Shown: positions 42,545 to 59,981 of the stretch, one piece after another
Layout: every line of letters begins with the position of its first letter
Position numbering within the stretch: the first letter of the stretch is position 1
NCBI GenBank assembly: GCA_024275415.1
Contig: JAJRZD010000012.1
Coordinates: forward strand, 17,796-81,795
DNA from: an archaeon
GTDB taxonomy: Archaea > Asgardarchaeota > Thorarchaeia > Thorarchaeales > Thorarchaeaceae
DNA length: 64,000 bases
Direction: 5' to 3'
Notes under the pieces: model-generated
What the model was told of the DNA's origin: nothing
Databases searched by the model: none
Seen by the model: only the letters and a program-made list of their open reading frames with translations
Program-made: the position numbers and the translations under genes

Positions 42545-43645
42545 TCATGGCAGCACAGAAGACGATATCGAAACGTCATGTAACATGAGGAGATCCACCA
42601 TCACGAAAGCCGTCAAATTCTCGACGACCGGGACAGCGCGAGGGACGATACACGGATCATGTCGTCCAGTTACCCTCAACTCTGTTGTTTTTATTTCCGC
42701 CAAGTCAATAGTTGTTTGAGGCTTAGATATGCTTGGAGTGGGTTTGAAGGCGGCTCTGAACACGATTGGAGCCCCAGTGCTCAACCCACCTAGGATACCG
42801 CCTGCGTTATTGCTCCTCCAAACGAGTCCATTGGATGTGTATTCCACCTGGTCATTGTGGTCAGACCCGTTCATAGAAGCAGCCTTGAACCCAGCCCCGA
42901 ACTCGATGCCCTTCACACCGGGGATACTGAACATAGCGTGGCTTATACGACTCTCGATGGAATCAAACAACGGCTCACCTACTCCTATAGGGAGATTCAG
43001 TACACGACACTCGACTATACCACCAACCGAATCACCTTCACTTCGCGCCCGAAGGATCTCCTCTTCCATAAGTCGAGATACATTGGTATCAATGCATCCA
43101 GTGGAGTTGGAATGCTTGCATCGAGCAAGCTCGTCGTCGGTAGGGTTCTGCTCCAAAGCGATATTTCCAACTTGGACTGTATGAGCTAGGACACTAATGT
43201 TCCGTATAGAAAGGATTTGCTTTGCGACTGCCCCTGCCAACACGTACACTGCGGTCATGCGTCCAGAGAAGAATCCGCCACCCCGATAGTCGTTGAATCC
43301 ATTGTATTTGTAGAATGCGGTGAAGTCTGCATGTCCGGGTCGCGGAGTGTTTTTCATACGCTCATATGCATCCGACTGAGAATCCCTGTTCTGAATCACC
43401 ATCATAATCGGCCCTCCAGTGGTGACTCCATCAACGACACCTGTTTTCACATCGAACTGGTCTGTTTCATCCCGTGAGGAACTTGTGTGATACAGTCCGG
43501 GTCTTCGCCGTGCAAGCTCGTCCTCGATTATCTTGTAGTCCAGTTCGAGACCTGCTGGACAGCCCTCGATGCTGACCCCGATACACTCTCCATGACTTTC
43601 CCCAAACACATGAATCTTGAAGTGTCTACCCATGCTAAAGGTCAT
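42545..43645 (-). CDS. aroC: Chorismate synthase
   Basis: N-terminal FGESHGECIGVSIEGCPAGL and the overall AroC signature. There is a 4-bp overlap with aroA. Confidence 0.9.
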   Translation of the reverse strand: MTFSMGRHFKIHVFGESHGECIGVSIEGCPAGLELDYKIIEDELARRRPGLYHTSSSRDETDQFDVKTGVVDGVTTGGPIMMVIQNRDSQSDAYERMKNTPRPGHADFTAFYKYNGFNDYRGGGFFSGRMTAVYVLAGAVAKQILSIRNISVLAHTVQVGNIALEQNPTDDELARCKHSNSTGCIDTNVSRLMEEEILRARSEGDSVGGIVECRVLNLPIGVGEPLFDSIESRISHAMFSIPGVKGIEFGAGFKAASMNGSDHNDQVEYTSNGLVWRSNNAGGILGGLSTGAPIVFRAAFKPTPSISKPQTTIDLAEIKTTELRVTGRHDPCIVPRAVPVVENLTAFVMVDLLMLHDVSISSSVLP

Positions 43646-44931
43646 GACGCATATCCACTCCTCTGGATTAGGGTCGCACGAGCGCCCAGGGTCAGCATAT
43701 CACGCATGAAACTCGGATAGCTTTTTGTGCTACACTCGAAGCAGTCTATGGTGGTGGTGCCCTCAGCAACAGTACCAGCAACGAATGCAGCCATAGCAAT
43801 CCGGTGGTCATTATGGGGATTCACACTGGCACCATGCAGTCGTGTGGGTCCCTCAATCCGTAACGAGTCCTGCTCGTGTGCGATATCAACATTCATCTTA
43901 GACAGTTCGCTGATCGTGGTCTGGATCCTATCGCTCTCTTTCAACTTGAGCCTGCGGACGTTCTTCAAGACCGTAGTGCCATCAGCCTGAGATGCCACGA
44001 CTGCGAGGATCGGGACGAGGTCTGGAATATCGCTGACATCGACCGTGATTCCTTGCAGGGGACGTTTCCTCACAATGACTCCTTTCTGATAACATTCAAC
44101 GGATGCACCCATCTCTCTGAGAAGCCTCACAAACTTGGAGTCGCCTTGTACCGAAGCCTCGTGCAGTCCGATGACCCCGACACTCCCTGTAAGGGCACCA
44201 AACGCCTCAAGGAATGCAGCAGATGAATGGTCACCCTCGATATGGATCGTCTGTGCGTGATATCGTTGACTGCCGGGAATAATGAAACGGTCTGATGAGT
44301 GATGGACGTATGCGCCAAACATCCGCATCAGTTTCAGGGTCATCAGAACATAGGGCTTTGACTCGAGGCGTGAGGTAAGGACAACCTCACATTCATTTCG
44401 TGCCTTTGACCCTGCCATGAGCAGCGATGATATGAACTGCGAACTTATATCACCACGGATTAAAGTAGAACCCCCTTCGAGACCGTCACCCCGCACCTCT
44501 ATAGGTGGAAGGGCGTCACCATTTACTGAGTGGATGTTTGCGCCCCAGTCATTGAGAGAGCGAACGAGGTCACTAATGGGTCGCTGATGCAATGAGGGGT
44601 CTCCAAGAAGTAGTGAAACGCCATCAGCGAGAGAGGCAAGCCCAACGAAGAGCCTGAATGTCGTTCCCGAGCTCCCGCAATAGATGATCCCGGAAGAGGG
44701 AGCCGAGTTTCCAAGTCCTTCAATACTCAAATGACCATTCAGATGGATCCTTGCACCCAGCAGACGGGCAGCATCAATCGTGGCTTTGGTGTCGTCACAT
44801 ATCAGCGGATTAGGTATGTGTGTCTTGCCTTCAGCCAACATACCACATACGATCGCGCGATGAGTAAGGCTATTGGAAGGGGGGGCATGATGCCAACCAG
44901 TCGCGCTAGACCTCTTGACACGTACTTTCAA
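43642..44931 (-). CDS. aroA: 3-phosphoshikimate 1-carboxyvinyltransferase (EPSP synthase)
   Basis: The ORF is 429 aa. EPSPS motifs are LLGDPSLHQRPI, GNSGTTFRL-like (GSSGTTFRLF) and NDHRIAMA. Confidence 0.9.
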   Translation of the reverse strand: MKVRVKRSSATGWHHAPPSNSLTHRAIVCGMLAEGKTHIPNPLICDDTKATIDAARLLGARIHLNGHLSIEGLGNSAPSSGIIYCGSSGTTFRLFVGLASLADGVSLLLGDPSLHQRPISDLVRSLNDWGANIHSVNGDALPPIEVRGDGLEGGSTLIRGDISSQFISSLLMAGSKARNECEVVLTSRLESKPYVLMTLKLMRMFGAYVHHSSDRFIIPGSQRYHAQTIHIEGDHSSAAFLEAFGALTGSVGVIGLHEASVQGDSKFVRLLREMGASVECYQKGVIVRKRPLQGITVDVSDIPDLVPILAVVASQADGTTVLKNVRRLKLKESDRIQTTISELSKMNVDIAHEQDSLRIEGPTRLHGASVNPHNDHRIAMAAFVAGTVAEGTTTIDCFECSTKSYPSFMRDMLTLGARATLIQRSGYAS

Positions 44932-45440
44932 AGGTGTAGCCTCCTACAAATCTCGGTGACGATACAGTTGATGTCCTTTCCATCTGTGTCGATTTCGATG
45001 TCACAGGCTCTCGCATAAAGATTCTCTCTGAGTCGCATCAAGTCAATAATTGCCCGCAGCCTCTCATTTTCAGTTTCCAGTAGTGGACGGCTATTGTCCC
45101 GAAGTAGTCGTTCATGGATTGTGAGTGGGCTGGCCTTCAAGAGGATGACTTTGGAAACCCTCCTGATATGCTCGATGTTCTCTTGAGAAAAAAGAACACC
45201 GCCACCAAAGCTTAACACATGATGTTTCCTCTGACAGAGGTCTCTTACAGCAAGGGATTCAAGATGTCTGAAGTATTCTTCTCCATTCTCAGCAAATATC
45301 CTTGAAACCTGCTTTCCAGCCATCTGTTCTACCATGTCGTCCGAGTCTTCAAAATGCATCCCTATCTGCCTTGCCAGTGCCTTGCCTACAGAGGTCTTTC
45401 CCGTCCCCATGAATCCGATGATACCAATGTTGGGTTTCAT
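44928..45440 (-). CDS. aroK: Shikimate kinase, bacterial P-loop (AroK/AroL) type
   Basis: The Walker A is IIGFMGTGKTSVGKALA. The E. coli AroK-like layout is followed (FEDSDDMVE...GGGVLFSQENI). Confidence 0.85.
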   Translation of the reverse strand: MKPNIGIIGFMGTGKTSVGKALARQIGMHFEDSDDMVEQMAGKQVSRIFAENGEEYFRHLESLAVRDLCQRKHHVLSFGGGVLFSQENIEHIRRVSKVILLKASPLTIHERLLRDNSRPLLETENERLRAIIDLMRLRENLYARACDIEIDTDGKDINCIVTEICRRLHL

Positions 45441-46318
45441 GACTTCCGGACTCTCCCCTTTTCATGACTCCTTCCCTGCTCATCGATTGCAGCCAGAGCA
45501 GCCGCGCGCATGACACCTATGGAAGGTTCCCTACCAGTCCAGATGCGGAGCGATTCGGCACCTTGATGAACCAGCATCATCACTCCATTGATGGTTCTGC
45601 ACCCTTCATCTTCTGCCATAGCGAGGAGCTTTGTACGGGGAGGGTTATAGTTCAGATCCATCACTGACAGCCCATTCATCAGTTCGCTATCAGTGACAGG
45701 TGACTCGTTCTCGTATACGCCTCGCATCCCAAGAGGAGTGCAGTTGATCACCATGTCACTGTGCCGGACATAGTTCGGAAACTCCTCAAGTCGACCGGAC
45801 ACAACAGAAGCATTCCCTCCGCTGCGCAAGACCCTTGCAAGATCTCTCGCTCTCTCGACATTACGGTTCAGGATGAAAAGGTTCGGCACATCATGCTTGA
45901 GAAGACTGTGACAGATAGATCTGGCTGCACCGCCAGCGCCAATAACAATGCATCGGGTCGATGGTATGTCGATGCGTGATTCTTGCAAGGACTTGATGAA
46001 CCCAACTCCATCCGTTGAACACCCAACAACCATTCCTTTGTGGGAATAGAGCGTGTTAACAGAACTAGTTTGCACAGCGTCCCCACCAATCCTGTCAATA
46101 AAAGGGACTATGACTTCCTTCAAGGGTGCAGTGATGTTAGCTCCCGTAATTTGACCATCTGCTATATCATCAATCAGCTGTTGGACATCCTTTGGTCTCA
46201 TCGGGTTCCTGTCGTAATGATATTCCCTTGAAAGTCCCAGATCTGCGAGGGCTGCATTATGCATCTGGGGACTCACAGAATGGGCTATATGGGTTCCCAC
46301 GACACAAAGTCGCTTCAC
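45437..46318 (-). CDS. aroE: Shikimate 5-dehydrogenase
   Basis: The substrate-binding N-terminus is SPQMHNAALADLGL. The NADP Rossmann motif is VIGAGGAARSI. Confidence 0.85.
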   Translation of the reverse strand: MKRLCVVGTHIAHSVSPQMHNAALADLGLSREYHYDRNPMRPKDVQQLIDDIADGQITGANITAPLKEVIVPFIDRIGGDAVQTSSVNTLYSHKGMVVGCSTDGVGFIKSLQESRIDIPSTRCIVIGAGGAARSICHSLLKHDVPNLFILNRNVERARDLARVLRSGGNASVVSGRLEEFPNYVRHSDMVINCTPLGMRGVYENESPVTDSELMNGLSVMDLNYNPPRTKLLAMAEDEGCRTINGVMMLVHQGAESLRIWTGREPSIGVMRAAALAAIDEQGRSHEKGRVRKS

Positions 46319-46998
46319 GTATTGAACACCTCCATAATCTCCTTCATCTCTGGTAGGGACAACTGACCTGGCGCCGTTTCATTTCCCGAATTGGTTGCCA
46401 CATAGGCAAAGGGAGCCCCAAAGAGCGTCGACAAAATCCTCGTGTAGGTGCCAAGAAACCCCATCGAGAACGCAATAAGGTCGCATTTGTGCTTTTGATT
46501 ATACGAGTACAACCGTAGAATCCTATGTCCATCGTCAATGCGTTTAGCGAATGTCACGATCTTGATGATATCGGGGGCCAGAGATATCATGTCCTCCATC
46601 GTTCCTTTCAGGTACTCGAAGGGAGGAGTTCCCTCGAAATAGTGCTTTGACAAGATGACCCCGCATCCTGCATCGTGAGCATAATCGATGATCGAGCTTC
46701 GAGACCACATTGGACTCTCATACTCGATATCGACAAAGGATGCTCCAGAGCTAATGGCGGCCCGAAGGAGCGATATTCGGTTTCTTTCACTGCCAGCAAA
46801 GTGTCCGCCTTCTCTAATGGGTCTGTTTGTGGCGATGACAGGAACATGGGTCGAGGAATATACCTCTTCGATCCCCTTAGTGCACTCGAGAAAATCAATT
46901 CGATGTTCTACAAGGTCTGCATCCAATCTCTCAATTGATGTTATGCAGTCATCTATCGAGGAATACCTTAATGATACACAGAACCTCATCGACCTCAT
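46315..46998 (-). CDS. aroD: 3-dehydroquinate dehydratase, type I
   Basis: It aligns with E. coli AroD (LVEHRIDFL; catalytic Lys region IIKIVTFAK; SKHYFEGTP ~ SNHDFHKTP). Confidence 0.8.
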   Translation of the reverse strand: MRSMRFCVSLRYSSIDDCITSIERLDADLVEHRIDFLECTKGIEEVYSSTHVPVIATNRPIREGGHFAGSERNRISLLRAAISSGASFVDIEYESPMWSRSSIIDYAHDAGCGVILSKHYFEGTPPFEYLKGTMEDMISLAPDIIKIVTFAKRIDDGHRILRLYSYNQKHKCDLIAFSMGFLGTYTRILSTLFGAPFAYVATNSGNETAPGQLSLPEMKEIMEVFNT

Positions 46999-47819
46999 CT
47001 CCTATTCATGCCATGTACGCAACCATGCTTTACTGCGCTAACGAATTCCTGTATTTTGTTGAGCGAAACGAATGGGTCATGCAAACACCCTTCATACATC
47101 TTACATATCGCACTGCCGACAATAACCCCATCTGCACCAGCCTCCACGAGAGCCTGTGCATGATTTTCGCTTGATATTCCAAACCCTACAAGGACAGGGA
47201 TAGAACTGAGTTCCTTCACTCTTCTTACAAGCCCAAGTGTACCCGTCTGAACATTGTCACGAGTCCCTGTCACACCAGAAACGGCCGTCACATACACAAA
47301 GCCCTGACACACCTGAAGAATACCGTTCAGTCGCGCAGTAGAAGTGCTCGGGCTGACAATCTGAATCAGGTGGATGTCGAACTCCCTTGTTATCTCGTAC
47401 ACATAACTGCATTCCTCCAGAGGTAGATTCGGAACAATCACCCCATTGGCACCAGACACTGCAATCTGCTCAATGAAGTCCCTTGCGCCCATCCTATGAA
47501 TGATATTGTAGTAGCTGGTGACGACCACAGGAGCGATGATTCCCATGTCACGAATCCGCTCTATCCCTTGGATTGCCCTGCGTGGAGTCATTCCCGCTTC
47601 AAGTGCTCGCTTGCAAGCCCTTTGGAACACTGGGCCATCCGATGTCGGGTCGGAGAACGGGATTCCGAACTCGATGATGTCCACTCCGTTCTTGGTCATG
47701 GAGTCGATTAGACGTAGCGAGAACTCCTCTGAGGGGTCTCCAAAATAGGTATGGGCCATGAAAACGGGATTACCTGAAACGAATAACGTGTCCAGTTGGT
47801 TTGAATATGATTGCATCAT
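46995..47819 (-). CDS. trpA: Tryptophan synthase alpha subunit
   Basis: [18 protein letters not shown], plus the TrpA TIM-barrel pattern. Confidence 0.9.
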
Positions 47820-49024
47820 GTACCCTCCTCCAACTCCACAATCATACTGACATCCTTGTCACCCCGTCCTGAAAGACACACTACTATGATGTCATCGGAC
47901 GAAAGAGAGGGGACAATCTCCTCTAGGTATGCAATCGCATGGGCACTTTCCAAGGCCGGTATGATTCCCTCTAACCGTGACAACTTCTTGAACCCTGCCA
48001 GTGCCTCGTCATCAGTGACACTGACATACTGCACTCTACCGATAGCATGTAGGTGCGCGTGTTCAGGGCCTACGCCAGGGTAGTCGAGCCCCGCGGAGAT
48101 CGAATGGGCTTCCAGAATCTGCCCATCGCTATCTTGCAGGAAATAGCTTCTTTGCCCATGAAGGACACCGGGTTCTCCTGCGGTGATAGAAGCACCGTGC
48201 ATCCCTGATGTGATCCCTTTACCGCCAGCTTCCACACCTATGAGTTCCACTGGGTCGTCAATGAAGGCGCTGAACATCCCGATTGCATTGCTTCCTCCAC
48301 CGACACATGCCACGATATGTGTAGGAAGTCTCCCAGTTTCTGCAATGACCTGCTCACGAGTTTCGGTGCCAATCACAGACTGGAAGTCCCGAACGATGGT
48401 CGGATACGGATGTGGCCCGACTACTGAGCCAATGACATAATGTGTCGTGCTGCTTGTGGCCGCATAGTCACGCAGGGCTTCGTTTATAGCATCCTTCAGT
48501 GTACGTGAACCAGATTCGACAGGAACGACCTCTGAACCAAACAGCTTCATGCGGTAGACGTTCAGCTTTTGGCGAGTAATATCTACAGCCCCCATGTACA
48601 CGACGCATTCAAGACCGAGTGCTGCACACGCTGCGGCAGTCGCGACACCGTGCTGTCCTGCCCCAGTTTCAGCAATGATACGGGTCTTGCCCATCATCTT
48701 TGCTAAGAGGACTTGGCCGATAGTGTTGTTGACCTTGTGAGCGCCGAGATGACACAAGTCTTCTCGTTTGAGATAGACCTGCGCACCACCCAGATCATCC
48801 GTAAGCCGTGCAGCATGATAGAGTGGCGTGGGTCGTCCGACCAGATGAGTGAGATACTTATGATACTTTTTTCTGAACGAAACATTGGGTGTGATGTCGC
48901 GGTAAGCGTCTTCGAGTTCCTTTATCGCAGGCATGAGCGTTTCTGCAACAAATTGGCCACCGAATTCACCGAAATAGGGGCCGTGTTCCGTGTTCTGTGT
49001 CATCTCCGTGTTCCTCCTTTGCAT
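47816..49024 (-). CDS. trpB: Tryptophan synthase beta subunit
   Basis: The PLP-lysine region is HLGAHKVNN. Other motifs are GGGSNAIG and GVGPEHAHL. Confidence 0.9.
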
Positions 49025-49653
49025 TGCGAGAGAAACCTCCTCACAAGCATCCGGTCCTTTTTGCCAACCTCTTCCTCCACACCGGAGGAAACATGAATGG
49101 CGTAGGGCCTTGTCGCAAGGGCATCTGAGAGAGTATCAGGAGCTAGACCGCCGGCTAACGCAAAACGTCCATTGCAAAAAGGTAAGACATGCTTCCTTAA
49201 CATCGAGATGTCTATGCAGAAGCCCCGTCCACCATATACTCCATGTCTGCTAGGTTCGAACGAGATAATGTCAGACACTTTACTCATCTCGGTCAGGTTC
49301 GGGATAGGGCATCCTGACAGCGAGTCGTCCTGCGGAACTAGCATGACACTAGTACACTTGAACCCATGATCGTGTATCGTTTCGACTGCATCGATTCCTA
49401 GGTTGTAGACCTGCACCATATCAACATCAGCGGATCGTGCGTCATCACAGACTCTCTCGATGTCTGATGACGTAAAGATGCCAGTCACATGGACAAGTGG
49501 ACCAAGCTGCTCACGTATCTCCTTAGCTAGCCCAATGGGTATCTCTCGCGCCCGGTCAGCAGCAAGCACCAATCCGATAGCATCAGCGCCTTCCTCTTCG
49601 CACATTAGAGCGTCGGCTAACGATGTGATGCCACAAATCTGCACCCTGGTCAT
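49000..49653 (-). CDS. trpF: Phosphoribosylanthranilate isomerase
   Basis: [29 protein letters not shown]. The start is chosen at the internal ATG 49653 (ATGA overlap with the trpC stop). The ORF track's start at 49776 adds an atypical 41-aa extension overlapping trpC. Confidence 0.8.
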
Positions 49654-50462
49654 TCTTGCACCCCCGCGAACTCGGTCACGACGCTGCGACCCGTACGGAC
49701 TAGGTCGCCCACTGCTTGCTTGGGGTCTGATGACCTCATCAATGACGTGCCAACAAGTACAGCATCGACCCGACACCCCGAAAGAGAATAGACTTTCTCT
49801 ATGTCAGAGCCAGTGGTGATCCCTGATGCTGCTACAAGCACCGTGTCTTCTGGTAGATTCTTTGCAATGGCAATGTTGGAAAGGTCAATCCTGAGATCGG
49901 AGTAGATGTTCCGTGCGTTTACTAAAATAATGTGTGCTCCCGCGGAAAGCGCAGATTCGAGTTCTTTCTCGTTTGACACTTCAATGACAGCGTCAAGTCC
50001 AAGTCGTTCACCGATGTCTATGAGTTCTCCCAGGTCGCCGCCAACAGATTCCACGACACGAACCATCAACAGGAATGCATCGGCTCCAGCAGATACGCAG
50101 TCTGCCAGATGCTGAGGTGTGAAAAAGAAGCCCTTTGCCAACAGTGGCAGTCGAACAACCTTCCTTGCAAATCTCAGCAGGTCAAATGAGCCGTTAAAAT
50201 GCATCTGCTCCACGAGAACCGAAATCCCTGTGGCGCCACCCTCAATATAGGCTCGTAAGATAGGATCAGGGGTAAGGTCTCCAGCGGATAGAGGACCATT
50301 GGAAGGTGATGCGGGTTTCAGCTCAGATATTACACGAACCCCTGTGCAGTGCCCATGCATCAATGCATCACGCAACCGAATAGAGACCTCAGTTACATCC
50401 GATAGCTTCGACTCGACTATCTCCCCAACAGTTTCTCCTAGCCGTGCTCGCAACATGCTCAT
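49650..50462 (-). CDS. trpC: Indole-3-glycerol phosphate synthase
   Basis: SELKPASPSNG and the IGPS barrel motifs. Confidence 0.85.
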   Translation of the reverse strand: MSMLRARLGETVGEIVESKLSDVTEVSIRLRDALMHGHCTGVRVISELKPASPSNGPLSAGDLTPDPILRAYIEGGATGISVLVEQMHFNGSFDLLRFARKVVRLPLLAKGFFFTPQHLADCVSAGADAFLLMVRVVESVGGDLGELIDIGERLGLDAVIEVSNEKELESALSAGAHIILVNARNIYSDLRIDLSNIAIAKNLPEDTVLVAASGITTGSDIEKVYSLSGCRVDAVLVGTSLMRSSDPKQAVGDLVRTGRSVVTEFAGVQE

Positions 50463-51478
50463 CCCTCCTTGAACAGCTTCAGGCTGTAGTTCCTGAAGGA
50501 CTCGAACTTCGCCTTTGCATGCCCTTCGACAATTGCGTTCCGTGCGAGTTCGATACCTTCACCTATGTCTTTGACCATATTACTGACATAGAGCCCAGCC
50601 CCTGCATTCAGGAGGACTATGTCCACATACGGGGAAGGGTTGCCATCCAGCACCTCAGTCAGTATCTTTGCATTGGTGTCTGGCGACCCTCCTGCTATGT
50701 CTCGGACATGCACACGAGCAAGACCGAAGTCATCCGGTGTGATCTCGTAAGATTCCACCTTGCCATGTTCCAGTTCCGAAATCCTTGTGGATCCAGTAGT
50801 CGTCAGCTCATCAAGCCCTGAACCATGTGCGACGATTGCGTGTTCCAGTCCGAACCTACCAAGCACCTTTGCGAGAGGTTCCGTCAACTCCGAATCGTAG
50901 ACACCCATGAGCTGGTACTTTACGTTAGCAGGGTTTGTCAGCGGTCCAAGGACGTTGAAGACTGTACGCAACCCCAGCTCTCGACGTGGGGCAATGGCGT
51001 ACTTCATCGCATGATGGAACAATGGCGCGAACAGAAACCCAATCCCGATGTCGTTCACGCACCTCTCGGTCTGCAGTGGTGTTAGGTCTATATGGACTTT
51101 CAGTTCCTCAAGAAGATCCGCAGAGCCACATTTGCTCGAAACGCTGCGATTGCCATGCTTTGCAACAGGTGTGCCAGCTGATGCGATTACGAAAGCGGAA
51201 GCCGTGGATATGTTGAACGTGCCCAGTCGGTCGCCCCCAGTCCCACAGGTGTCGAGCGTGTTCTCAGGCACAGATATGCCGATTGCCTTCTTGCGCATGG
51301 TCTTGGCGAAGGCATAGAGTTCTTCCACAGTTTCGCCTTTCATCCGCAGAGCTGTGAGGAACCCTGCAATCTGGGGAGCGCTGGTCACGCCATCCATGAT
51401 GTTCGACATCGCGAGTGCAGCCTCGGCCTCGTTCAGATCCTTTCGTTCCACAAGTTTCTCCAGTACATCTCGAATCAT
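50459..51478 (-). CDS. trpD: Anthranilate phosphoribosyltransferase
   Basis: CGTGGDRLGTFNISTASAFV, plus the N-terminal helical domain. Confidence 0.9.
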   Translation of the reverse strand: MIRDVLEKLVERKDLNEAEAALAMSNIMDGVTSAPQIAGFLTALRMKGETVEELYAFAKTMRKKAIGISVPENTLDTCGTGGDRLGTFNISTASAFVIASAGTPVAKHGNRSVSSKCGSADLLEELKVHIDLTPLQTERCVNDIGIGFLFAPLFHHAMKYAIAPRRELGLRTVFNVLGPLTNPANVKYQLMGVYDSELTEPLAKVLGRFGLEHAIVAHGSGLDELTTTGSTRISELEHGKVESYEITPDDFGLARVHVRDIAGGSPDTNAKILTEVLDGNPSPYVDIVLLNAGAGLYVSNMVKDIGEGIELARNAIVEGHAKAKFESFRNYSLKLFKEG

Positions 51479-52500
51479 GTAAGCACCTCCTTGACGAGTC
51501 TTGACCGTACAGGAGTCTGCCGCACCTCGGACATGAATTCTCTGAACATGTCGAATGTCAATGACTGCGGACCGTCTGACACGGCCTCAGCAGGGTTCGG
51601 ATGTACTTCGATGATGAGACCGTCAGACCCGACAGCCAAGCTCGCTCGTGCAAGGGGAATGACAGTACTCCGCTTGCCTGCCGCATGGCTCGGATCAACG
51701 ATGATCGGGAGATGTGTCAAGCTACGCAGCTCAGGTATCGCCCCGATGTCCAGAGTGAATCGCGAGTGATTACTGTAGGTTCGGATCCCTCTCTCGCAGA
51801 GGATGACATTGTAGTTCCCTTCAGACATGACGTACTCCGCAGCCAAAAGGAACTCGTTGATCGTTGCAGATATCCCTCTCTTCAGTAGGACGGGTTTCTT
51901 GGAGCGTCCTGCCCTCCTCAGAAGCTCGAAGTTCTGCATATTCCTCGCACCTATCTGAATGACATCGACATAACGTTCTACAAGTGGGAACGACTCGATA
52001 TCCAGAGCCTCTGACACGACTGGTAGTCCGGTTCTCATTCTGGCTGCATTGAGTATCTTCAGACCTTCGAGACCCATGCCTTGGAAAGAGTATGGAGATG
52101 TCCGTGGTTTGAAGGCACCTCCTCTAAGCATGTCAGCACCCATCTCTGCGACAGCCGAGGCAGTCGTAGTCATCTGTTCATATGATTCAACCGCACAGGG
52201 TCCTGCAATGATGACAGGGTTCCCTTCACCAAACTGTGCATCTCCTATCTCGATAACTGTTTGTTCTGGTATCATCTCTCGGCTCGTCAGCTTGAATGGT
52301 TTTGTCACATGGATGATTTCTAGCACGCCTGCCATGCCCCCGATGTGGTCTGCATTCACGCGGCCAATGTTTCCAGTGACACCGATCGAAGTTCTCATCG
52401 AACCGGGTATTGGATGGGGTATGAGGCCAATCTTCCGGATGGCATCAACAACCCGATGTATTTGTTCGTCAGTTGCGTCCTTTCTCATTACTACTAACAT
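51475..52500 (-). CDS. 3-deoxy-7-phosphoheptulonate (DAHP) synthase, type Ibeta, with N-terminal ferredoxin-like regulatory domain
   Basis: [23 protein letters not shown]...[11 protein letters not shown] parallels Thermotoga DAHPS (MIVVLKPGSTEEDIRKVV...VLKPYKLVSRE). A KDO8PS-like barrel follows ([10 protein letters not shown]). The ORF track's start at 52530 overlaps aroB; M at 52500 is preferred. Confidence 0.8.
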
Positions 52501-53582
52501 ACTCTTCCCTCCTGAGTCATGAAGAAGCAATCTGGATCAAGCTCCCTCACATCAGCTTTCCCTACCTCTATGATGATAGGGGCTTTTAGTCGTCCATTGC
52601 GAAGCTTCTTGTCGCTCCTAATGGCGTCATTCACGTCCTTTGATCCTACAAACTTCGGGAGCGTTGTAGGGAGCCCAAAGGCCCTTAATATCTCAACAAG
52701 CTTGTCATGGTCTTCCGTGCAGGTCAGACCCATCTCTACTGATAGTTTCGTTTCTTCGACCATCCCGATGGCAACCGCCTCACCATGAGTGAGTGCATGT
52801 GATGATGCATATTCGATGGCATGCCCGACAGTATGACCGAAGTTCAAGATCTCCCTTATTCCTCGTTCCTCATGCACATCGGCTTGGACTATCCTCACCT
52901 TGTTCCGGATACATCGTTCAACAAGGGTCAGCATGGCAGAACGCTTCCGTTGAATGATGTCAGTGCGATTGTCCTTAAGCCAAGTGAAGAGCCCCTCATC
53001 CATCGTGAAGGCATACTTGATGGCCTCTGCAATGCCATTCAGGAGCTCGTCATGTGGCAGCGTTTCAAGCAACGTGATGTCGTTCAAGACGACTGATGGC
53101 TGATAGAAGGTGCCAATCATGTTCTTGGCACCTCGAAGATTCACTCCTGTCTTCCCGCCCACTGAGGAATCCACCTGTCCTAGCAGGGTCGAGGGGACTT
53201 GGACAAGTCGCATCCCGCGCTTGAATGTCGAGGCAACGAACCCAGCTGTGTCTCCCACAATCCCACCACCAAAGCCCAAGAGCGTGTCAGAGCGTTCGGC
53301 TTGATGATCCAAGAGGGGCAAATACACACGCTCTACAGTGCTGAGGGTCTTGTGTCGCTCGCCACATGGGATCTGTATCACTACTGGCTCGATATTTGCA
53401 CATGTGAAAGCGCTCACAAGTCTGGAGCCGTATAGTCCCATGACGACGGGATCAGACACGATAAATACTCTATGCGTTGTTTGCCCGAGCAGGACATCTA
53501 TCGCATCAAGCAGCTCTTCCCCAAGTTGAATCAAACTCTCACTCTCACCAAGAGTTCTAAGAACCAATGCAGTTTTGGTCAT
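52494..53582 (-). CDS. aroB: 3-dehydroquinate synthase
   Basis: GGGIVGDTAGFVASTFKRGMRLVQVPSTLLGQVDSSVGGKTGVN, plus metal ligands in HTVGHAIE. Confidence 0.9.
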   Translation of the reverse strand: MTKTALVLRTLGESESLIQLGEELLDAIDVLLGQTTHRVFIVSDPVVMGLYGSRLVSAFTCANIEPVVIQIPCGERHKTLSTVERVYLPLLDHQAERSDTLLGFGGGIVGDTAGFVASTFKRGMRLVQVPSTLLGQVDSSVGGKTGVNLRGAKNMIGTFYQPSVVLNDITLLETLPHDELLNGIAEAIKYAFTMDEGLFTWLKDNRTDIIQRKRSAMLTLVERCIRNKVRIVQADVHEERGIREILNFGHTVGHAIEYASSHALTHGEAVAIGMVEETKLSVEMGLTCTEDHDKLVEILRAFGLPTTLPKFVGSKDVNDAIRSDKKLRNGRLKAPIIIEVGKADVRELDPDCFFMTQEGRVC

Positions 53583-53585
53583 CGA

Positions 53586-54143
53586 TCACATCTCCAAGAA
53601 GTTCCGGAGAAGCAATCTGCCACTCTGGGTCAAGATAGACTCGGGATGGAATTGCAGCCCGATGAGCGTCCTTCTCCTATGTTCGATTCCCATGATCTCC
53701 TGCCCTGACCTTGCAATCACCCTGAGCTCATCCGGAAGACTTTCAGGATCGATGACCAGCGAGTGATAGCGTGTCCCGCGCAGAGGATTCGGCACATCTC
53801 GAAAAATCCCTTGTCCATCGTGCTTGATCAACGAGGCCTTTCCATGGACAGGTGCCGCACCTCGCAACACATCAGCTCCAAGCACATATCCGATAGCCTG
53901 ATGCCCAAGACAGATCCCCAGTATAGGGACATCGAGGTGTTTGATGACTTGGTTGGTCACTCGTGCGTTTCTTGGATGCCCTGGCCCGGGCGAGAGGATG
54001 ATGTGGTCGGGATTCCTCTGCTCAATGCGACCAAGCGGAGAATCATTTCGAATGACAGACACATCGGCTCCAAGAGCCCCAGCATACTGAGCGATATTGT
54101 AGACAAAGGAATCGAAGTTGTCAACAATGACGACCTTCGTCAT
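53586..54143 (-). CDS. trpG: Anthranilate synthase component II (glutamine amidotransferase)
   Basis: The class I GATase catalytic Cys is in ILGICLGHQAIG. The His/Glu are in HPES. Confidence 0.9.
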   Translation of the reverse strand: MTKVVIVDNFDSFVYNIAQYAGALGADVSVIRNDSPLGRIEQRNPDHIILSPGPGHPRNARVTNQVIKHLDVPILGICLGHQAIGYVLGADVLRGAAPVHGKASLIKHDGQGIFRDVPNPLRGTRYHSLVIDPESLPDELRVIARSGQEIMGIEHRRRTLIGLQFHPESILTQSGRLLLRNFLEM

Positions 54144-55432
54144 CAGCCCACACCTCCCAGCGCCTTCAATATCGCACCCATCTTATGCTCGGTTTCAAAG
54201 AACTCTCGTTCGGGAGCTGAGTCTGCGACAATCCCTGCTCCTGCCTGCAAGTATGCGTCCTTTCCTCGTATCAGAAGAGAGCGGATTGTGATGGCAAAAT
54301 CCATGTTCCCATTGAAACCAAAGTATCCGACTGCACCTGCATATGGCCCTCGACGAGTCGGCTCAAGAGCGTCAATAATCTCCATGGCGCGTATCTTTGG
54401 AGCCCCTGTGACCGTGCCCGCAGGGAACGCGGCCCGAAGTGCATCAAACTGGTCACAGTCTTTCCGAATCCGACCGCGAACCTGAGACACGATATGCTGC
54501 ACATGGGAAAACTTTTCGACACTCATGAAATCGTCAACCTTCACCGAGCCAAACTCTGCAACCCTTCCTAAGTCGTTCCTATGAAGGTCTACTAGCATCA
54601 CATGCTCTGCTCGTTCCTTTTCGTCGAGCAATAGCTCCACCTTGAGCTTCTCATCCTCTTCAACGTCATTTGACCGCGGTCTTGTACCTGCGATGGGCTT
54701 GGAGGTGAGAACCCCGTCACGCAGCTGGACCAGCATCTCTGGCGACGATCCAATTAGGCACGCCTCTTCGAAATCGAGCATGAACATATAGGGCGACGGG
54801 TTGATCTTGCGAAGAATCTGGTACATCCCGAGTTTGTCACCGTTGAACCTTGCACTGCACCTTCTGGAGATGACAGCTTGGAAAATGTCACCATCGACGA
54901 TGTGCTCGATGGTCTGCTCAACAGCATTCTCGTACTGTTTCCGTGTCATGTTCGAACGGATTCTTCCTATCGATACATCGGGCTCAGGCATCTCGTTTTC
55001 GGTGGTCATTGTGGATACCTCGTCCTTCGAGAAGAGGTACAGATCTCTATGGGCATGATCATAGACCAAGACGACCGCTGGCACGACTAGATGAGCGTCC
55101 GGTAGACCGAGGTCATCCCTTGTTGAGGATGGAATATCCTCGAAGAACCGTGCCATGTCGTACGAAAAGTAGCCTACCATCCCACCCGTGAAGGGAATTG
55201 GTGCCTCAGTTCGATAGCTAATCTGTTCAAATGTTTCTCTCAGGCACTCGTACGGATTCTCGCACACCAATTCGGTCTCGTTGATACGGACCTGATGACC
55301 TTTCGATACAAATGTTAACTCTTGCCCAAAGCCCATGATGGAGTATCGGGCTGTCTTCCGGAAACCTTCCATGGACTCCAAGAGGAAGCTCTCACCTGAA
55401 AACTCCTGTTTCAGCGAAGCATAGGTACACAC
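54143..55432 (-). CDS. trpE: Anthranilate synthase component I
   Basis: It uses a GTG start. SGESFLLESMEGFRKTARYSIMGFG and the C-terminal chorismate-binding GAVGYFGFNGNMDFAITIRS block are present. It is co-linear with Sulfolobus TrpE. Confidence 0.85.
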   Translation of the reverse strand: MCTYASLKQEFSGESFLLESMEGFRKTARYSIMGFGQELTFVSKGHQVRINETELVCENPYECLRETFEQISYRTEAPIPFTGGMVGYFSYDMARFFEDIPSSTRDDLGLPDAHLVVPAVVLVYDHAHRDLYLFSKDEVSTMTTENEMPEPDVSIGRIRSNMTRKQYENAVEQTIEHIVDGDIFQAVISRRCSARFNGDKLGMYQILRKINPSPYMFMLDFEEACLIGSSPEMLVQLRDGVLTSKPIAGTRPRSNDVEEDEKLKVELLLDEKERAEHVMLVDLHRNDLGRVAEFGSVKVDDFMSVEKFSHVQHIVSQVRGRIRKDCDQFDALRAAFPAGTVTGAPKIRAMEIIDALEPTRRGPYAGAVGYFGFNGNMDFAITIRSLLIRGKDAYLQAGAGIVADSAPEREFFETEHKMGAILKALGGVG

Positions 55433-55668
55433 CGGATCAAAAGATGATGGTTTGAGTTTTCGTACGCGAATGCCAGTAAAATGAGTTTCTAATTCAGCCG
55501 TGACTGCATGTGCCCTAGCTGAGCCAATGGCAATCCCGCCTGTCGTAAAGGCAATCCAACCTTAACATAGCATTCACCAAGTGGAGCCCTCAAGGACATG
55601 ATATAAAGCTTGTGCATAATCGGGGCATGATGTTCAAAATTGAGCATCGGGATTTACGATAAGCTGGT

Positions 55669-56406
55669 TCAAACATCGATACCTAGAGCTATATTGGTTT
55701 GCTTGTATGCGTCTTGATAGTCCGTCTTTGAGCTCAGCGCTCTGATCGCATCAATCGTATCAGGGATATGAACACAATGAGAGTCGATGACTTGTACCAA
55801 TGACAATTCAGGGTCTAGCATTATGCTCTCCGCCCATAATGCGGTTTCATACAAGTCCCCTGTTCTTCGAATAGTCCTTCGCACATACTCGAACACGCCA
55901 TCAGTAGTGAGAAGATCCGGCCATGTTGGCAATATGAGTGTCCGATCTTGCAGAGAGCGAAGGATATCCGTCTTTGTCGGCATTTGCTTGAACTCTACGA
56001 CCACCAAAGATGTGCTCATCAAAAGTGAAGGAATCTTGAAACTTGTGACATGAAATCTTACTTCGGAAAAGACCTTTTTCCATTCGTTTGACAGCAATTC
56101 CGGAAATCGGGGATAGTCATACTGGATAGCATCTATCGCCCCTTCAGGACGCATCAACTCACCACTGGCCCTGACAAGTGTGCAAAACACTCGTGCGATC
56201 CCGAAATCAGTGTCCAGACGATACAGACATCTCGTCAACGAAACCATATATGGTATTGGTATCCTCACCGAATCTCTACCTATTGCATGTGCATAATTCG
56301 CACAGGAGATGAATACAGGCACATCCGCTACTGAAAAATCCTCACCTGCCTGAAAGACTACCTTCTTTTCTAGCTCAGCGTAAAGTGGCTTGTTCTTTCT
56401 TGCCAT
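55669..56406 (-). CDS. Hypothetical protein (245 aa) at the boundary of the AT-rich island
   Basis: ORF only. I recognise no motif. Confidence 0.35.
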   Translation of the reverse strand: MARKNKPLYAELEKKVVFQAGEDFSVADVPVFISCANYAHAIGRDSVRIPIPYMVSLTRCLYRLDTDFGIARVFCTLVRASGELMRPEGAIDAIQYDYPRFPELLSNEWKKVFSEVRFHVTSFKIPSLLMSTSLVVVEFKQMPTKTDILRSLQDRTLILPTWPDLLTTDGVFEYVRRTIRRTGDLYETALWAESIMLDPELSLVQVIDSHCVHIPDTIDAIRALSSKTDYQDAYKQTNIALGIDV

Positions 56407-56742
56407 AGGTTGGTCTTGGTTCTATTCTTCAATTCTTAGTACGATTGCATCCAATGCAATCAAATCGAAGATAACAAATCCAGGCCCGCAGGCTTTCTTG
56501 GATGCAGCAAAAGATAGGTTCAGGAATCTGGCATCATACCTAGAATACTCCATCTTTGCGAATGCAATCATCATTTCGATTGCATTATTCCTGCTTGCAA
56601 AATCTGCATGGCATTTCATGCAGCCAACCTAGAGCTGTCTGTCTGCATAGGGGACAAAGCAAAATGATTTTCAAGGTGTTGAAGATGAATAATCTTCTCT
56701 ATCATATCCGGATAGGATGTTTGTAGAATAGGAGATAATGAG

Positions 56743-57066
56743 ATGGATGGTATAACTAGCCTGATTGTAATGCTACTTCTTCAGGGAATAGCAGCAATTC
56801 TATTCTTACTGATGATTAATCATATGAGGTTAGTAGGGACTATTGGTACGGCTCGCGAAACAGTACCTTTAAGGGAGAAGGTCGCTGTTTTAGTTGCATA
56901 TCTCGGTTCTATTTCTTTGCTAACCATGATATCGCTAATTATTGGTTTGGACTCAATCTCAGGTCCCATTTATGGAGGTTCATTTGCCCTCGTAGCCAGT
57001 GTGCTTGTAGCGCTTCTGGTTCTTGGAAGGGAGTACCTGGACTCTGAAGCCGATACAGAGCAGTAA
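56743..57066 (+). CDS. Small hydrophobic protein (3 TM), island-associated
   Basis: The ORF is 107 aa with three hydrophobic helices. It lies in the AT-rich segment. Confidence 0.35.
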   Translation: MDGITSLIVMLLLQGIAAILFLLMINHMRLVGTIGTARETVPLREKVAVLVAYLGSISLLTMISLIIGLDSISGPIYGGSFALVASVLVALLVLGREYLDSEADTEQ

Positions 57067-57278
57067 ACATGATAATTGGTTTCACTTGTTTGTGTTCTTT
57101 ATATAAAGGAAATGAGAACAGGTGGATCAAGTACTACTGGCGTGTAAAATGGCTTGTTGGAATTATGTACCTGCTCGCAATAGTTAAGTTTTCGTTTATT
57201 GTTATGTTACTTATCTTGATTGCATTCCTTTGGGGCAGAAGCATTGAATACTATACATTGCACTAATGTAATTGGCAG

Positions 57279-57623
57279 GTGGTGATTTATATGATAGGAG
57301 CTATTCTACTGGCATTGGGTTCGTCTTGCCTCTTTCTAGTCATTGCACTTGACACATTTTCAGAGAAATTCGAACACACATTCATGCGGGGCTTATCACA
57401 TAGGATCTCGAGTTCTCCTACATTCAATCTCGTATCATACGAAGGCACCATTCCCTTCTTCCTTCTTGGTTTGCATCTACTCATTGAAAAAACCCAAAAT
57501 CCGATGCTGCTTGATGGATATCCCGACCTCTGGAGTCGAATAGTGACTTGGTTGCCTTTGGTATTCGGTTTTGCTCTTGAATATGGTGCGTTTCGGACGA
57601 TTTGGAATGGCTCGAAAGAATGA
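57279..57623 (+). CDS. Small hydrophobic protein (3 TM), island-associated
   Basis: The ORF is 114 aa. The helices are MIGAILLALGSSCLFLVIAL, IPFFLLGLHLLI and IVTWLPLVFGFAL. Confidence 0.35.
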   Translation: MVIYMIGAILLALGSSCLFLVIALDTFSEKFEHTFMRGLSHRISSSPTFNLVSYEGTIPFFLLGLHLLIEKTQNPMLLDGYPDLWSRIVTWLPLVFGFALEYGAFRTIWNGSKE

Positions 57624-57944
57624 GAATGCCATTTATGATATTGCAGAGGAAATTTTAGAAGCAAATGACAGCCCCCTGAATGGTTTCGAGGAGGCTATGC
57701 AGTACCTTCAGGGTTGCAAAGGGAAATATCGTTTTGTTGATGAGGACACATTTCTCAAACGACTATCTGATCGAGATGACGATATCGGCATTCTTGCGAA
57801 ACAACACATTTCACCGCCAGATGCAGATTAGTCTTTCTCAATGCGATTTCTCAGATGTCTGCTTATTCGCTGTTTGGTTATCTTATCACCGATTAGAATA
57901 AGTTAGTTGGGCTTCGAAGAACTCCGGCTCAATGCAGCTACATC

Positions 57945-58784: not shown

Positions 58785-58795
58785 AGGAATGGCCG

Positions 58796-59188
58796 ATGAT
58801 ACAAGATGTCGTTAATTTCATTATGTGGATTTGGGACTTGATCGGAATCGAGATTGTCGTATTTCTTCTACCAGGCATAGTACTGCAAATCACCAGCCAA
58901 GAGCTGGAAAAACGCATTCGCAACAATCTGGATAATGCTGTTCCGAACTCGGTTCAAAGAAGGCCTCTATCTGAGAGATACTTGAGTAATAGGAAACTCT
59001 GGGGTTTCACTTTGAACATCCTACTGTACGCCTCTCTCATCTTGAAGGGCATATTTGGATACATATTCCTTGGGTTTCTTGGAGCTTTTCTATTTACAAT
59101 TCCAGAGATCATGCTCGACAAAACGCGATATACAGTGTTTACAATAGAGTCCCGTATGAATCTGCTAGTACAAGAAAAGAACGAGTGA
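58796..59188 (+). CDS. Small membrane partner protein of paralog 1 (130 aa, ~4 TM)
   Basis: It starts 12 bp after the paralog 1 stop. TM helices flank a basic loop (KRIRNNLDNAVPNSVQRRPLSERY). Confidence 0.45.
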   Translation: MIQDVVNFIMWIWDLIGIEIVVFLLPGIVLQITSQELEKRIRNNLDNAVPNSVQRRPLSERYLSNRKLWGFTLNILLYASLILKGIFGYIFLGFLGAFLFTIPEIMLDKTRYTVFTIESRMNLLVQEKNE

Positions 59189-59198
59189 TGGCGGAAAC

Positions 59199-59900: not shown

Positions 59901-59981
59901 ATTGGGTGAAGAACTAAAGCATATAAGACCATCCTCAATGTCATCATATCCCAGTATTTCCATCGAAAAGGAGGAGCAGGA

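Follow-up and report, generated by a model that had tools for sequence, protein, structure and literature searches.

The window, that is, the whole 64-kb stretch of DNA analysed, contains 14 minus-strand genes (55432..42545) representing all seven steps of the shikimate pathway and all seven tryptophan enzymes. Their order, trpE-trpG-aroB-DAHPS-trpD-trpC-trpF-trpB-trpA-aroD-aroE-aroK-aroA-aroC, is the interleaved aro-trp arrangement proposed in the first-pass annotation, and both Pfam and NCBIfam back all 14 assignments. The first gene, trpE (54143..55561), encodes anthranilate synthase I (PF04715 and PF00425; frame analysis; PDB alignments to 1QDL and 7BVD), and is followed by trpG (53586..54143) for the glutamine amidotransferase subunit (PF00117, E 6e-54). 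The aroB gene (52494..53582) codes for a 3-dehydroquinate synthase of the canonical type (PF01761 and PF24621; TIGR01357, 352 bits, cutoff 305), and the next gene (51475..52500) for a type I-beta DAHP synthase with an N-terminal ferredoxin-like domain (PF00793 and PF18152; NF006421, 474 bits, cutoff 335). The second group of tryptophan genes comprises trpD (anthranilate phosphoribosyltransferase, 50459..51478; PF00591 and PF02885), trpC (indole-3-glycerol-phosphate synthase, 49650..50462; PF00218), trpF (PRA isomerase, 49000..49653; PF00697), trpB (tryptophan synthase beta of the TrpB1 type, 47816..49003; TIGR00263, 621 bits, cutoff 392) and trpA (tryptophan synthase alpha, 46995..47819; PF00290). 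The unit is completed by aroD (type I 3-dehydroquinate dehydratase, 46315..46998; PF01487; TIGR01093, 156 bits, cutoff 139), aroE (shikimate dehydrogenase, 45437..46318; PF08501, PF01488 and PF18317; TIGR00507, 234 bits, cutoff 200), aroK (P-loop shikimate kinase of the SKI family, 44928..45440; PF01202, E 2e-41), aroA (EPSP synthase, with a TTG start, 43642..44931; PF00275, E 2e-103) and aroC (chorismate synthase, 42545..43645; PF01264, E 4e-129).

Judging from family membership, DAHP would be made and converted to chorismate along the canonical route by DAHPS, AroB, type I AroD, AroE, AroK, AroA and AroC, and chorismate to tryptophan by TrpE, G, D, C, F, B and A. Chorismate mutase and prephenate dehydrogenase were not detectable across the whole 64 kb, in agreement with the earlier description of the block as lacking Phe/Tyr genes, and the same search of the window revealed neither a GHMP-type kinase nor DHQS-II.

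With the best-supported starts, 4-bp ATGA/GTGA/TTGA overlaps are found at 10 of the 13 junctions, and trpE and trpG overlap by 1 bp. The remaining two junctions are a 7-bp overlap of aroB and DAHPS (ATG 52500) and a 3-nt gap between trpG and aroB. The longest-ORF starts of DAHPS (52530), trpF (49776) and trpB (49024) were replaced by the better candidates 52500, 49653 and 49003, respectively; the ATG at 49653 gives trpF a 4-bp overlap with the trpC stop. GGAGG-like Shine-Dalgarno sequences precede most starts by 5-10 nt and, together with the overlapping stop and start codons, would allow coupled translation of the 14 cistrons.

The same 14-gene order is present in five other Thorarchaeota-type genomes (L007, L008, L016, L017 and L018), whose proteins are 37-73% identical to those of the window. 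In Loki-, Hermod- and other Thor-labelled genomes the aro core aroB-DAHPS-aroD-aroE-aroK-aroA-aroC occurs without trp genes; a 9-gene aro operon with an SKI-type kinase and FL-DAHPS is carried by one Lokiarchaeota (L014), two Hermodarchaeota (L011 and L012) and one Thorarchaeota locus (L015). The TACK loci have the order aroD-aroE-GHMP kinase-aroA-aroC, accompanied by DHQS-II (L001) or by FL-less DAHPS and aroB (L002 and L003). Among the sampled loci, all 14 proteins of the window are closest to their Asgard counterparts. The operon may have arisen when a trp operon merged with the aroB-DAHPS-aroD-aroE-aroK-aroA-aroC operon that is Asgard-wide, with trpEG placed in front and trpDCFBA inserted between DAHPS and aroD.

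Three pathway choices had been singled out as notable, of which only the shikimate kinase contrasts with other archaea. Its assignment to the P-loop AroK type is confirmed by PF01202 and by the best PDB matches, 4Y0A and 1KAG, and no difference from bacterial AroK is seen in the Walker A, DxD, GGG and Arg residues. Among the Asgard genomes sampled this kinase is the rule, and in the operon it occupies precisely the slot of the GHMP kinase of TACK archaeal operons. It was probably an old, in-place non-orthologous replacement of the GHMP kinase, common to Thor-, Hermod- and Lokiarchaeota, rather than a recent import. The dehydroquinase is of type I, as first read (PF01487, TIGR01093), but TACK archaeal loci use the same type, which is normal for archaea, and DAHPS and AroB are likewise used by Thermoproteota relatives. 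The DAHP synthase, first described as a Thermotoga/Bacillus type Ibeta enzyme, is of the Thermotoga type, aligning over its full length to T. maritima 1RZM (residues 1-328, E 4e-106), and not of the Bacillus type fused to chorismate mutase. Flux through the pathway is probably controlled allosterically via the ferredoxin-like domain of DAHPS, as in T. maritima, and probably also via the LLES region of TrpE.

The unit extends 5' of 55432, where its end had been set: the trpE frame stays open, and is conserved, up to 55561, and the promoter region lies at 55601-55647. A TATA-like box, TTTATAT (55601..55607, minus strand), is located 39 nt upstream of a conserved ATG (55568), and its position at -39/-40 is kept in all six loci compared, as TTTATAT, TTATATT or TTTAAAA. 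Just 5' of it, four ATGnnCA boxes (ATGCTCA, TTGAACA, ATGCCCC and ATGCACA; 55611..55647, minus strand) follow each other in 10-bp phase. In 6/6 loci, ATGTACA-like boxes are present between -50 and -82 relative to the conserved ATG, 21 being observed and 1.7 expected (Poisson P about 4e-16). The boxes of the window are a candidate operator for a transcription regulator, through which the flux would probably be controlled at the transcriptional level. This single archaeal promoter, with its TATA box and phased boxes, most likely gives rise to one polycistronic mRNA of about 13 kb.

How translation of trpE starts can be read in two ways. GTG 55432 is the earliest canonical start codon in frame, while the homology to the N-terminus of TrpE already sets in at about 55483; a canonical in-frame start that would preserve this N-terminus is absent in the window and in L007, and none is visible in L016, in which the region is partly hidden by a run of N. 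Upstream, the stretch 55515..55578 (minus strand) consists of an SD-like GGTGA (55578-55574) and, after it, the ATG at 55568, which opens a 17-codon ORF, MLRLDCLYDRRDCHWLS*. This ORF is shifted by +1 relative to the trpE frame and holds an invariant Asp and Trp codon. An 18-nt core, AGGCGGGATTGCCATTGG, is conserved at 55541-55524.

Bacteria offer classical examples of regulatory upstream ORFs with Trp codons, and these provide a precedent for the first reading, to which we give slightly less than an even chance: trpE is translated from a non-canonical or downstream in-frame codon (e.g. AUU or GTG 55432), and the upstream block serves as a small regulatory uORF or as a DNA or RNA element bound by protein, without recoding. 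Starting at GTG 55432 keeps the Pfam N-terminal domain nearly whole (profile positions 9-140), and L008, L017 and L018 each offer canonical in-frame starts, either close to the conserved N-terminus or farther upstream. In L007, however, no canonical start occurs before the Met after the LLES motif, and use of that Met would cost the protein a conserved strand as well as its feedback site. A purely non-coding element leaves unexplained why the trpE frame exclusively stays open and why upstream indels are in-frame; a search of the upstream block (55515..55578) found neither a conserved RNA structure nor an Rfam match.

The second reading, which we regard as unlikely, is that ribosomes initiate at ATG 55568 and enter the trpE frame through a programmed +1 frameshift, possibly at a conserved (G/C)(U/A)U-UGG site with an SD-like AGGCGGG before it. 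In its favour are the SD and ATG standing 39-40 nt from the TATA box in 6/6 loci, the position of trpE in the +1 frame with about 45 stop-free codons upstream of its conserved N-terminus, the fact that indels in that stretch are multiples of 3, the lack of an N-terminus-preserving start noted above, and the Trp codon retained in the ATG frame. RF2 (prfB) uses a programmed +1 frameshift at CUU_UGA with an internal SD ahead, to which the GUU_UGG of 4/6 loci is comparable. By sequence, the trpE region would resemble prfB in having an SD-like G-rich element followed by an NUU codon and a potentially slow codon, and a +1 downstream frame encoding a functional protein. It differs in that a Trp codon, UGG, would take the place of the stop as slow codon, the spacer measures 5 nt compared with 3, and CAU replaces NUU in two of the six loci, the window and L007, whose CAU_UGG is a poor slippery site. 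Moreover, most changes within the 18-nt core are synonymous when read in the trpE frame, which suggests that ribosomes have entered this frame by then, the in-frame GTG/TTG of L017 and L018 could act as ordinary starts, and the comparison rests on six sequences. A true frameshift would make expression sensitive to the supply of Trp-tRNA, as an analogue of RF2 autoregulation; hungry-codon +1 shifts are covered in a review of frameshifting (PMC5009743).

The surroundings of the operon point to its host. Directly upstream lies what remains of an archaeal type II GAPDH gene. The window also encodes a Ras-family GTPase and an LRR protein, as well as a PadR protein that carries an archaeal TRASH/Ta0938 domain. 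The PyrRedox flank gene is 64.5% identical to a gene of Thorarchaeota L015, with which the flank also shares the gene for a giant GNAT protein; both genes are 30-37 kb from the operon, and the matching Thorarchaeota contig has an aro operon too. By its gene content, the source genome is archaeal and Asgard/Thorarchaeota-like. That the contig is bacterial or a mis-binned chimera devoid of archaeal context has a practically negligible probability: many flank genes (peptidases, an MFS transporter, a histidine kinase and a molybdopterin oxidoreductase) are taxonomically uninformative by Pfam, but the genes listed above and an archaeal TATA promoter kept at a fixed distance speak against it.

A recent transfer of the whole block from a bacterium into an archaeal genome is very improbable as well. 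The GC content of the block is 0.51 compared with 0.475 in the other genes, but the excess sits in codon positions 1 and 2 and so reflects amino-acid composition; GC3 (0.533 in the block vs 0.507 in the flanks, P = 0.15) does not differ significantly, and the RSCU correlation between block and flanks (0.81) equals that of within-set halves. In a first AroK search with a word index, all named matches were bacterial, at ≤48% identity, an artefact of the word index, since a profile search ranks dozens of Asgard AroKs first; the best pairwise match is a Thorarchaeota protein (52% identity). The window AroK scores 205 bits with an Asgard HMM vs 192 bits with a bacterial one, a difference that was negative for 12/12 bacterial and positive for 21/21 Asgard controls. 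Bacteria such as WOR-3 also possess mixed aro/trp operons and very similar DAHPS, yet the WOR-3 operon is ordered differently, contains an aroK-aroB fusion and relies on a dehydroquinase of type II, while the operon of the window recurs in the five Asgard genomes at deep divergence.

In neighbour-joining trees of small samples, rather than maximum likelihood with balanced taxon sampling, DAHPS of bacteria formed a 91% clade excluding the window and Asgard sequences, whereas the AroK distance tree was uninformative, monophyly of window and Asgard sequences having 19% bootstrap and the window pairing with Firmicutes at 4-18%. A concatenated aro tree of the same kind set Asgard and the window against TACK and WOR-3 at only 67%. 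The closest named relatives of both DAHPS and AroK are from Thor-, Hermod- and Lokiarchaeota. Since DAHPS is almost as similar to WOR-3/Phycisphaerales (63-65%) as to Asgard proteins (61-69%), an ancient inter-domain transfer of this gene, in either direction, may have occurred.

The first-pass annotation had left a choice between lateral acquisition of the whole block and a lineage that uses the canonical pathway, and had named branching within the host clade and normal codon usage as evidence against acquisition. Such a pattern emerged from the DAHPS tree, the AroK HMM scores, GC3/RSCU and the shared operon. As relatives share the operon, GC3 and codon usage match the flanks, DAHPS falls outside the bacterial clade and AroK scores on the Asgard side, a canonical-pathway lineage is indicated and not a recent acquisition. 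We therefore consider it very probable that the block is the native operon for aromatic-precursor and tryptophan biosynthesis of a Thorarchaeota-like Asgard archaeon.

Among its enzymes, DAHPS shares the two-domain architecture (PF18152 and PF00793) of the Thermotoga maritima enzyme (PDB 1RZM/3PG9), but its host is archaeal and the tree groups it with Asgard sequences outside the sampled bacterial clade. In Thermococcales the shikimate kinase is of the GHMP type, unlike the AroK-type kinase found here. The archaeal GHMP-family enzyme, reportedly described by Daugherty and colleagues in 2001, catalyses the AroK reaction and has the same place between aroE and aroA (L001-L003). It is discussed in PMC3018139. 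The fold of the GHMP-family enzyme is unrelated to that of the P-loop SKI-family kinase of the window.

The consensus of the TRP box is TGTACA, which the boxes found here (ATGTACA, in 10-bp phase) resemble. As in archaeal Tar-regulated operons for the same pathways (Tar: TGGACA-N8-TGTCCA), the candidate regulator boxes adjoin the BRE/TATA region. In contrast to the Tar/trpY systems, aro and trp genes here constitute a single interleaved unit, with no Tar gene inside the operon and no adjacent trpY. Trp genes lying among aro genes on one strand are also known from the Bacillus subtilis aro supraoperon, where trp is nested among common-pathway genes, from the Nostoc/Anabaena trp/aro supraoperon and from the Desulfovibrio aroA'-aroB'...trp cluster (PMC1173090); here as in these bacteria, the embedding presumably ensures joint expression of the precursor and end-product branches. 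The operon of the window differs from all three in its order, with trp genes split as trpEG / aroB-DAHPS / trpDCFBA / aroDEKAC, in the absence of hisC/tyrA and of any sign of TRAP, and in comprising all seven chorismate steps under an archaeal promoter in an Asgard host.

The aro-trp operon of the window comprises 14 consecutive minus-strand genes (55432-42545), delimited by a six-frame ORF listing combined with Pfam and NCBIfam scans. The gene order, trpE, trpG, aroB, DAHP synthase (DAHPS), trpD, trpC, trpF, trpB (TrpB1), trpA, aroD, aroE, aroK, aroA and aroC, exactly matches that proposed in the first-pass annotation. With the start codons best backed by upstream GGAGG-like sites, the 13 junctions include ten 4-bp overlaps, one of 1 bp, one of 7 bp and one 3-nt gap. 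According to Pfam and NCBIfam, all seven Trp enzymes (trpE, G, D, C, F, B and A) are encoded, and the window also carries all seven enzymes of the canonical DAHP-dependent shikimate pathway. Homologues of chorismate mutase, prephenate dehydrogenase, GHMP kinase and the alternative enzyme DHQS-II were not detected in the whole 64 kb, in line with the earlier statement that the block contains no chorismate mutase or Phe/Tyr branch genes. The window has no tRNA gene and no Rfam match, and scans for terminators and sigma-70 promoters gave nothing beyond shuffled expectation.

The pathway is entered via DAHPS and AroB rather than ADH synthase and DHQS-II, as had been claimed. DAHPS (PF00793; NF006421, 474 bits against a cutoff of 335) aligns over its full length to the T. 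maritima enzyme (1RZM) and consists of a type I-beta barrel fused to an N-terminal ferredoxin-like (FL) domain (PF18152, 51.6 bits, cutoff 27), while AroB matches TIGR01357 with 352 bits (cutoff 305). In enzymes of the T. maritima type the FL domain mediates allosteric inhibition by Tyr/Phe, which may also apply to the window DAHPS. The assignment of DAHPS to type I-beta is therefore sound, but the DAHPS/AroB entry is less distinctive than was proposed, being found also in the archaeal Thermoproteota loci L002 and L003, whose DAHPS lacks the FL domain; the Bathyarchaeia locus L001 uses DHQS-II. The FL form is common to all Asgard operons sampled. The dehydroquinase AroD is of type I (TIGR01093, 156 bits, cutoff 139), again as described, but this is not notable, since the Bathyarchaeia and Thermoproteota loci use the same type. 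The remaining enzymes are represented by AroE (TIGR00507, 234 bits, cutoff 200), AroK (PF01202), AroA (PF00275) and AroC (PF01264).

The shikimate kinase was correctly recognised as the P-loop AroK type: it carries PF01202 only, without GHMP_kinases_N/C domains, and the GHMP kinases of L001 and L002 used as queries found no match within the window. Its score of 154 bits is below the NCBIfam equivalog cutoff of 204, yet far over the Pfam threshold. The kinase has a Walker A motif (GxxGxGK[ST]), a DxD site for shikimate/Mg, the LID arginines and the GGG motif, and the residues G9, G12, G14, K15, D32/D34, R58, G79-81, R118 and R138 are invariant in comparison with bacterial and Asgard AroKs. The operons of the TACK comparison loci have the order aroD-aroE-GHMP kinase-aroA-aroC, and those of Asgard archaea aroD-aroE-aroK-aroA-aroC. 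The occupation of one operon slot by non-homologous kinases is a real contrast between the two groups, and the conserved slot makes it a clean case of in-place non-orthologous gene displacement. Asgard archaea are not the only archaea with AroK-type kinases: an aroE-aroK fusion has been reported from most Methanomicrobiales (PMC11237513). Fusions of the AroE-AroK, type I AroD-AroK and AroD-AroE-AroK kinds are among the best matches that an unbiased search gave for the window AroK; the fusion proteins P0348, P0349, P0353, P0356, P0335 and P0358 keep the gene order of the operon.

The identical 14-gene order was found in five related loci, namely L007 (GCA_964610875.1), L008 (Thorarchaeota GCA_021498125.1), L016 (GCA_027025915.1), L017 (Thorarchaeota GCA_013388835.1) and L018 (GCA_900174565.1). 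Their proteins are only 37-73% identical to those of the window, which indicates that the arrangement is old. A nine-gene operon without trp genes is present in Lokiarchaeota (L014), Hermodarchaeota (L011 and L012) and Thorarchaeota (L015), with the order CM-aminotransferase, tyrA, aroB, DAHPS(FL), aroD, aroE, aroK, aroA, aroC; upstream of their 14-gene operons, L007 and L018 carry the genes for CM-aminotransferase and tyrA in divergent orientation. Because of this trp-less version in other Asgard genomes, the 14-gene form looks like the Asgard aro operon expanded by trpEG in front and by trpDCFBA between DAHPS and aroD, and the two versions together record the weaving of a trp operon into an aro operon. 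Two of the relatives carry lesions: L008 trpE is interrupted in frame by a TAA where a Tyr is conserved (about 7677-7679), and a frameshift splits L018 trpG (8645-8703). These represent either assembly errors or operon decay in those populations.

The first-pass annotation offered two explanations for the block: lateral acquisition as a whole, or a lineage that uses the canonical pathway. The GC content of the block is slightly higher than that of the other genes (0.508 vs 0.475), with the excess lying in codon positions 1 and 2. GC3 is 0.533 vs 0.507 (P = 0.15), with 0.537 for those flank genes that Pfam identifies as enzymes, and the RSCU correlation between block and flanks (0.81) equals that between halves of either set. 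Among the sampled loci, all 14 window proteins are closest to an Asgard counterpart. In the neighbour-joining tree of DAHPS, the sequences of WOR-3, Wallbacteria and Phycisphaerales form a clade with 91% support that contains neither the window nor any other Asgard sequence, and in the tree of concatenated AroB-DAHPS-AroE-AroA-AroC the window is basal in the Asgard group with modest support (67%). AroK is short and the window sequence did not resolve in the corresponding distance tree; its affinity was therefore judged from synteny and an HMM discriminant, in which the Asgard model exceeded the bacterial one by 13.5 bits, with positive differences for 21 of 21 Asgard controls and negative ones for all 12 bacterial controls. 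The closest AroK in pairwise comparison is a Thorarchaeota protein (52% identity), and in a profile search proteins of Thor-, Hermod-, Loki- and Promethearchaeia rank before any bacterium. Own-lineage affinity combined with normal codon usage contradicts lateral acquisition, and the reading of a bacterial block in an archaeon is not supported; the alternative, a lineage with the canonical pathway, is supported by the identical operon in five other genomes of this lineage.

Several more specific origins were also considered. A horizontally acquired island was rejected, as GC3 and RSCU are as in the flanks and the operon occurs in five related genomes. An exclusively bacterial affinity of AroK had appeared in a single-sequence word-indexed search, but this result was misleading and was superseded by the profile search; a eukaryotic (AROM) affinity was discarded because the plant SK2 structure scores far under bacterial ones. 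The WOR-3 bacterium L010 encodes a DAHPS 65% identical to that of the window in a mixed aro/trp operon, but is implausible as a donor of the block: the gene order differs, aroK and aroB are fused, and the dehydroquinase is of type II. The region 1-11011 of this locus comprises hisIE-like, trpD, trpC, CM-tyrA, trpF, aroE, aroC, aroK-aroB fusion, type II aroQ, trpB, trpA and DAHPS(FL) genes, and this his/trp/aro mixture is an independent supraoperon solution.

Judged from its gene sequences, the host is an Asgard archaeon near Thorarchaeota. The named relatives of its DAHPS belong to Candidatus Thorarchaeota (62-69% identity) and Hermodarchaeota. Outside the operon, the pyridine-nucleotide oxidoreductase gene (4939-6438) has a counterpart with 64.5% identity on a Thorarchaeota contig; the contig sharing the flank genes for this oxidoreductase and an 1111-aa GNAT protein itself bears an aro operon. 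This giant protein (about 1100 aa), whose sole recognisable domain is the N-terminal GNAT, is conserved between the window (10394-13729, minus strand) and L015 (18523-20528). A small GTPase of the Ras/Roc/Arf family (31915-32502, minus strand) and an LRR protein (23084-24562, minus strand) are encoded in the window, and arrestin-domain proteins just upstream of trpE in L008 (5862-6701) and L016 (2046-4054); these eukaryote-like signature proteins are consistent with an Asgard host. A PadR protein with an archaeal TRASH/Ta0938 domain and a remnant of archaeal type II GAPDH, both encoded in the window, point the same way.

Directly upstream of the operon, a 245-aa ORF (55669-56406, minus strand) resembles archaeal type II GAPDH over positions 92-337 only, with 141 bits against a cutoff of 185, and lacks the N-terminal NAD-binding domain. 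Reading the unaligned sequence by eye, SLTR apparently stands where the catalytic motif SCNTT would be expected. The ORF encodes either a GAPDH-like protein with a new role or a remnant. From 56400 to 64000 the GC content falls to 0.42-0.46, and the ORFs at 57945-58784, 59199-59900, 60740-61312, 61654-62367 and 62368-62925 have no match in Pfam, nor do the first two, which were also run against NCBIfam, in that database. At the other end of the window, ORFs within a stretch of nearly 5 kb (1-4939) do not exceed 141 aa, whichever frame is read; this region is unusually gene-poor, or decayed or non-coding.

Alignment of the regions upstream of trpE across the window and its five relatives revealed a conserved ATG with a TATA-like box at a fixed distance of 39-40 nt upstream. 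Three or four heptamers resembling ATGTACA precede this box and are spaced in 10-bp phase (21 matches vs 1.7 expected, P about 4e-16). The minus-strand coordinates in the window are 55647-55611 for the heptamers, 55607-55601 for the TATA box, 55578-55574 for a GGTGA sequence and 55568 for the ATG. This leader looks like an archaeal promoter with a candidate operator; no regulator gene adjoins the operon in the window. TrpY of Methanothermobacter represses through TRP boxes by the promoter with the consensus TGTACA, which the ATGTACA-like boxes of the window, phased at 10 bp, resemble. The Tar regulator of Thermococcus recognises TGGACA-N8-TGTCCA upstream of the BRE/TATA region (PMC6737238), and the boxes of the window likewise precede the TATA box.

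The conserved ATG opens an ORF of 16-22 codons in all six loci, encoding MTRR...RRDC[VH]W... in most of them and MLRLDCLYDRRDCHWLS in the window. The trpE frame is +1 relative to this ATG, and both the start and the frame relation are kept in six of six loci. It is the sole frame free of stops in all of them: from a TGA or TAA overlapping the ATG it stays open for about 45 codons, as far as the conserved N-terminus of TrpE. Indels within this stretch are multiples of three, and it encodes a conserved peptide, GGIA[IF]G, in which most substitutions are synonymous when read in the trpE frame. In alignments with solved TrpE structures, homology to their N-terminal strand already begins near 55483, so that the usual trpE gene call cuts off conserved sequence. 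The window contains no in-frame ATG, GTG or TTG from 55561 to the GTG at 55432, in L007 the first in-frame start is the Met after the LLES motif, and in L016, where part of the region is masked by a run of N, no such start is visible. Entry into the trpE frame by non-canonical initiation is one candidate explanation; the short ORF may also be a regulatory uORF followed by re-initiation, or TrpE may be reached from it by a +1 frameshift. A candidate shift site, AGGCGGG-N5-GUU_UGG in four loci and with CAU_UGG in the window and L007, recalls the SD-CUU_UGA of RF2, and +1 shifts at hungry codons are known (PMC5009743). It is conceivable, albeit rather unlikely, that the supraoperon is switched on from the out-of-frame ATG by a Trp-tRNA-dependent +1 shift at the invariant UGG. 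An archaeon would then sense an amino acid through a translational switch, an analogue of RF2 autoregulation replacing bacterial attenuation. A riboswitch, attenuator or T-box was rejected, and an RNA element in the leader is not supported: there is no Rfam match at E up to 1, the consensus structure reaches only -5 kcal/mol with no covariation, and the single-sequence fold has a z of -1.7. A metagenome scan for further leaders returned only the L018 contig again (L027 = L018) and chance matches. If this lead holds, the start and leader of trpE could prove highly interesting; together with the promoter boxes, they provide a concrete, testable entry to Asgard gene regulation.

Judged by its gene set, one Asgard clade at least produces its aromatic precursors fully by the canonical route with a P-loop shikimate kinase, which corrects the default (GHMP kinase, often with ADH/DHQS-II entry) in archaeal metabolic reconstruction from MAGs. 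The eukaryotic AROM protein comprises the same enzyme types as the Asgard AroB, type I AroD, AroE, AroK and AroA, making the Asgard enzymes a relevant comparison set for its origin; no specific affinity of theirs to AROM was found. A full-text literature search combining Asgard or Thorarchaeota with shikimate found neither this operon nor the kinase replacement described, and no paper on the regulation of these genes in Asgard archaea was found. Supraoperons of trp and aro genes have been described from Bacillus and Nostoc/Anabaena, and beside aroA'/aroB' in Desulfovibrio (PMC1173090). In the Bacillus type, which is under TRAP regulation, an intact trp operon lies within aroFBH...hisC-tyrA-aroE; the window lacks hisC and tyrA, follows another gene order and has its trp genes in two separate groups.
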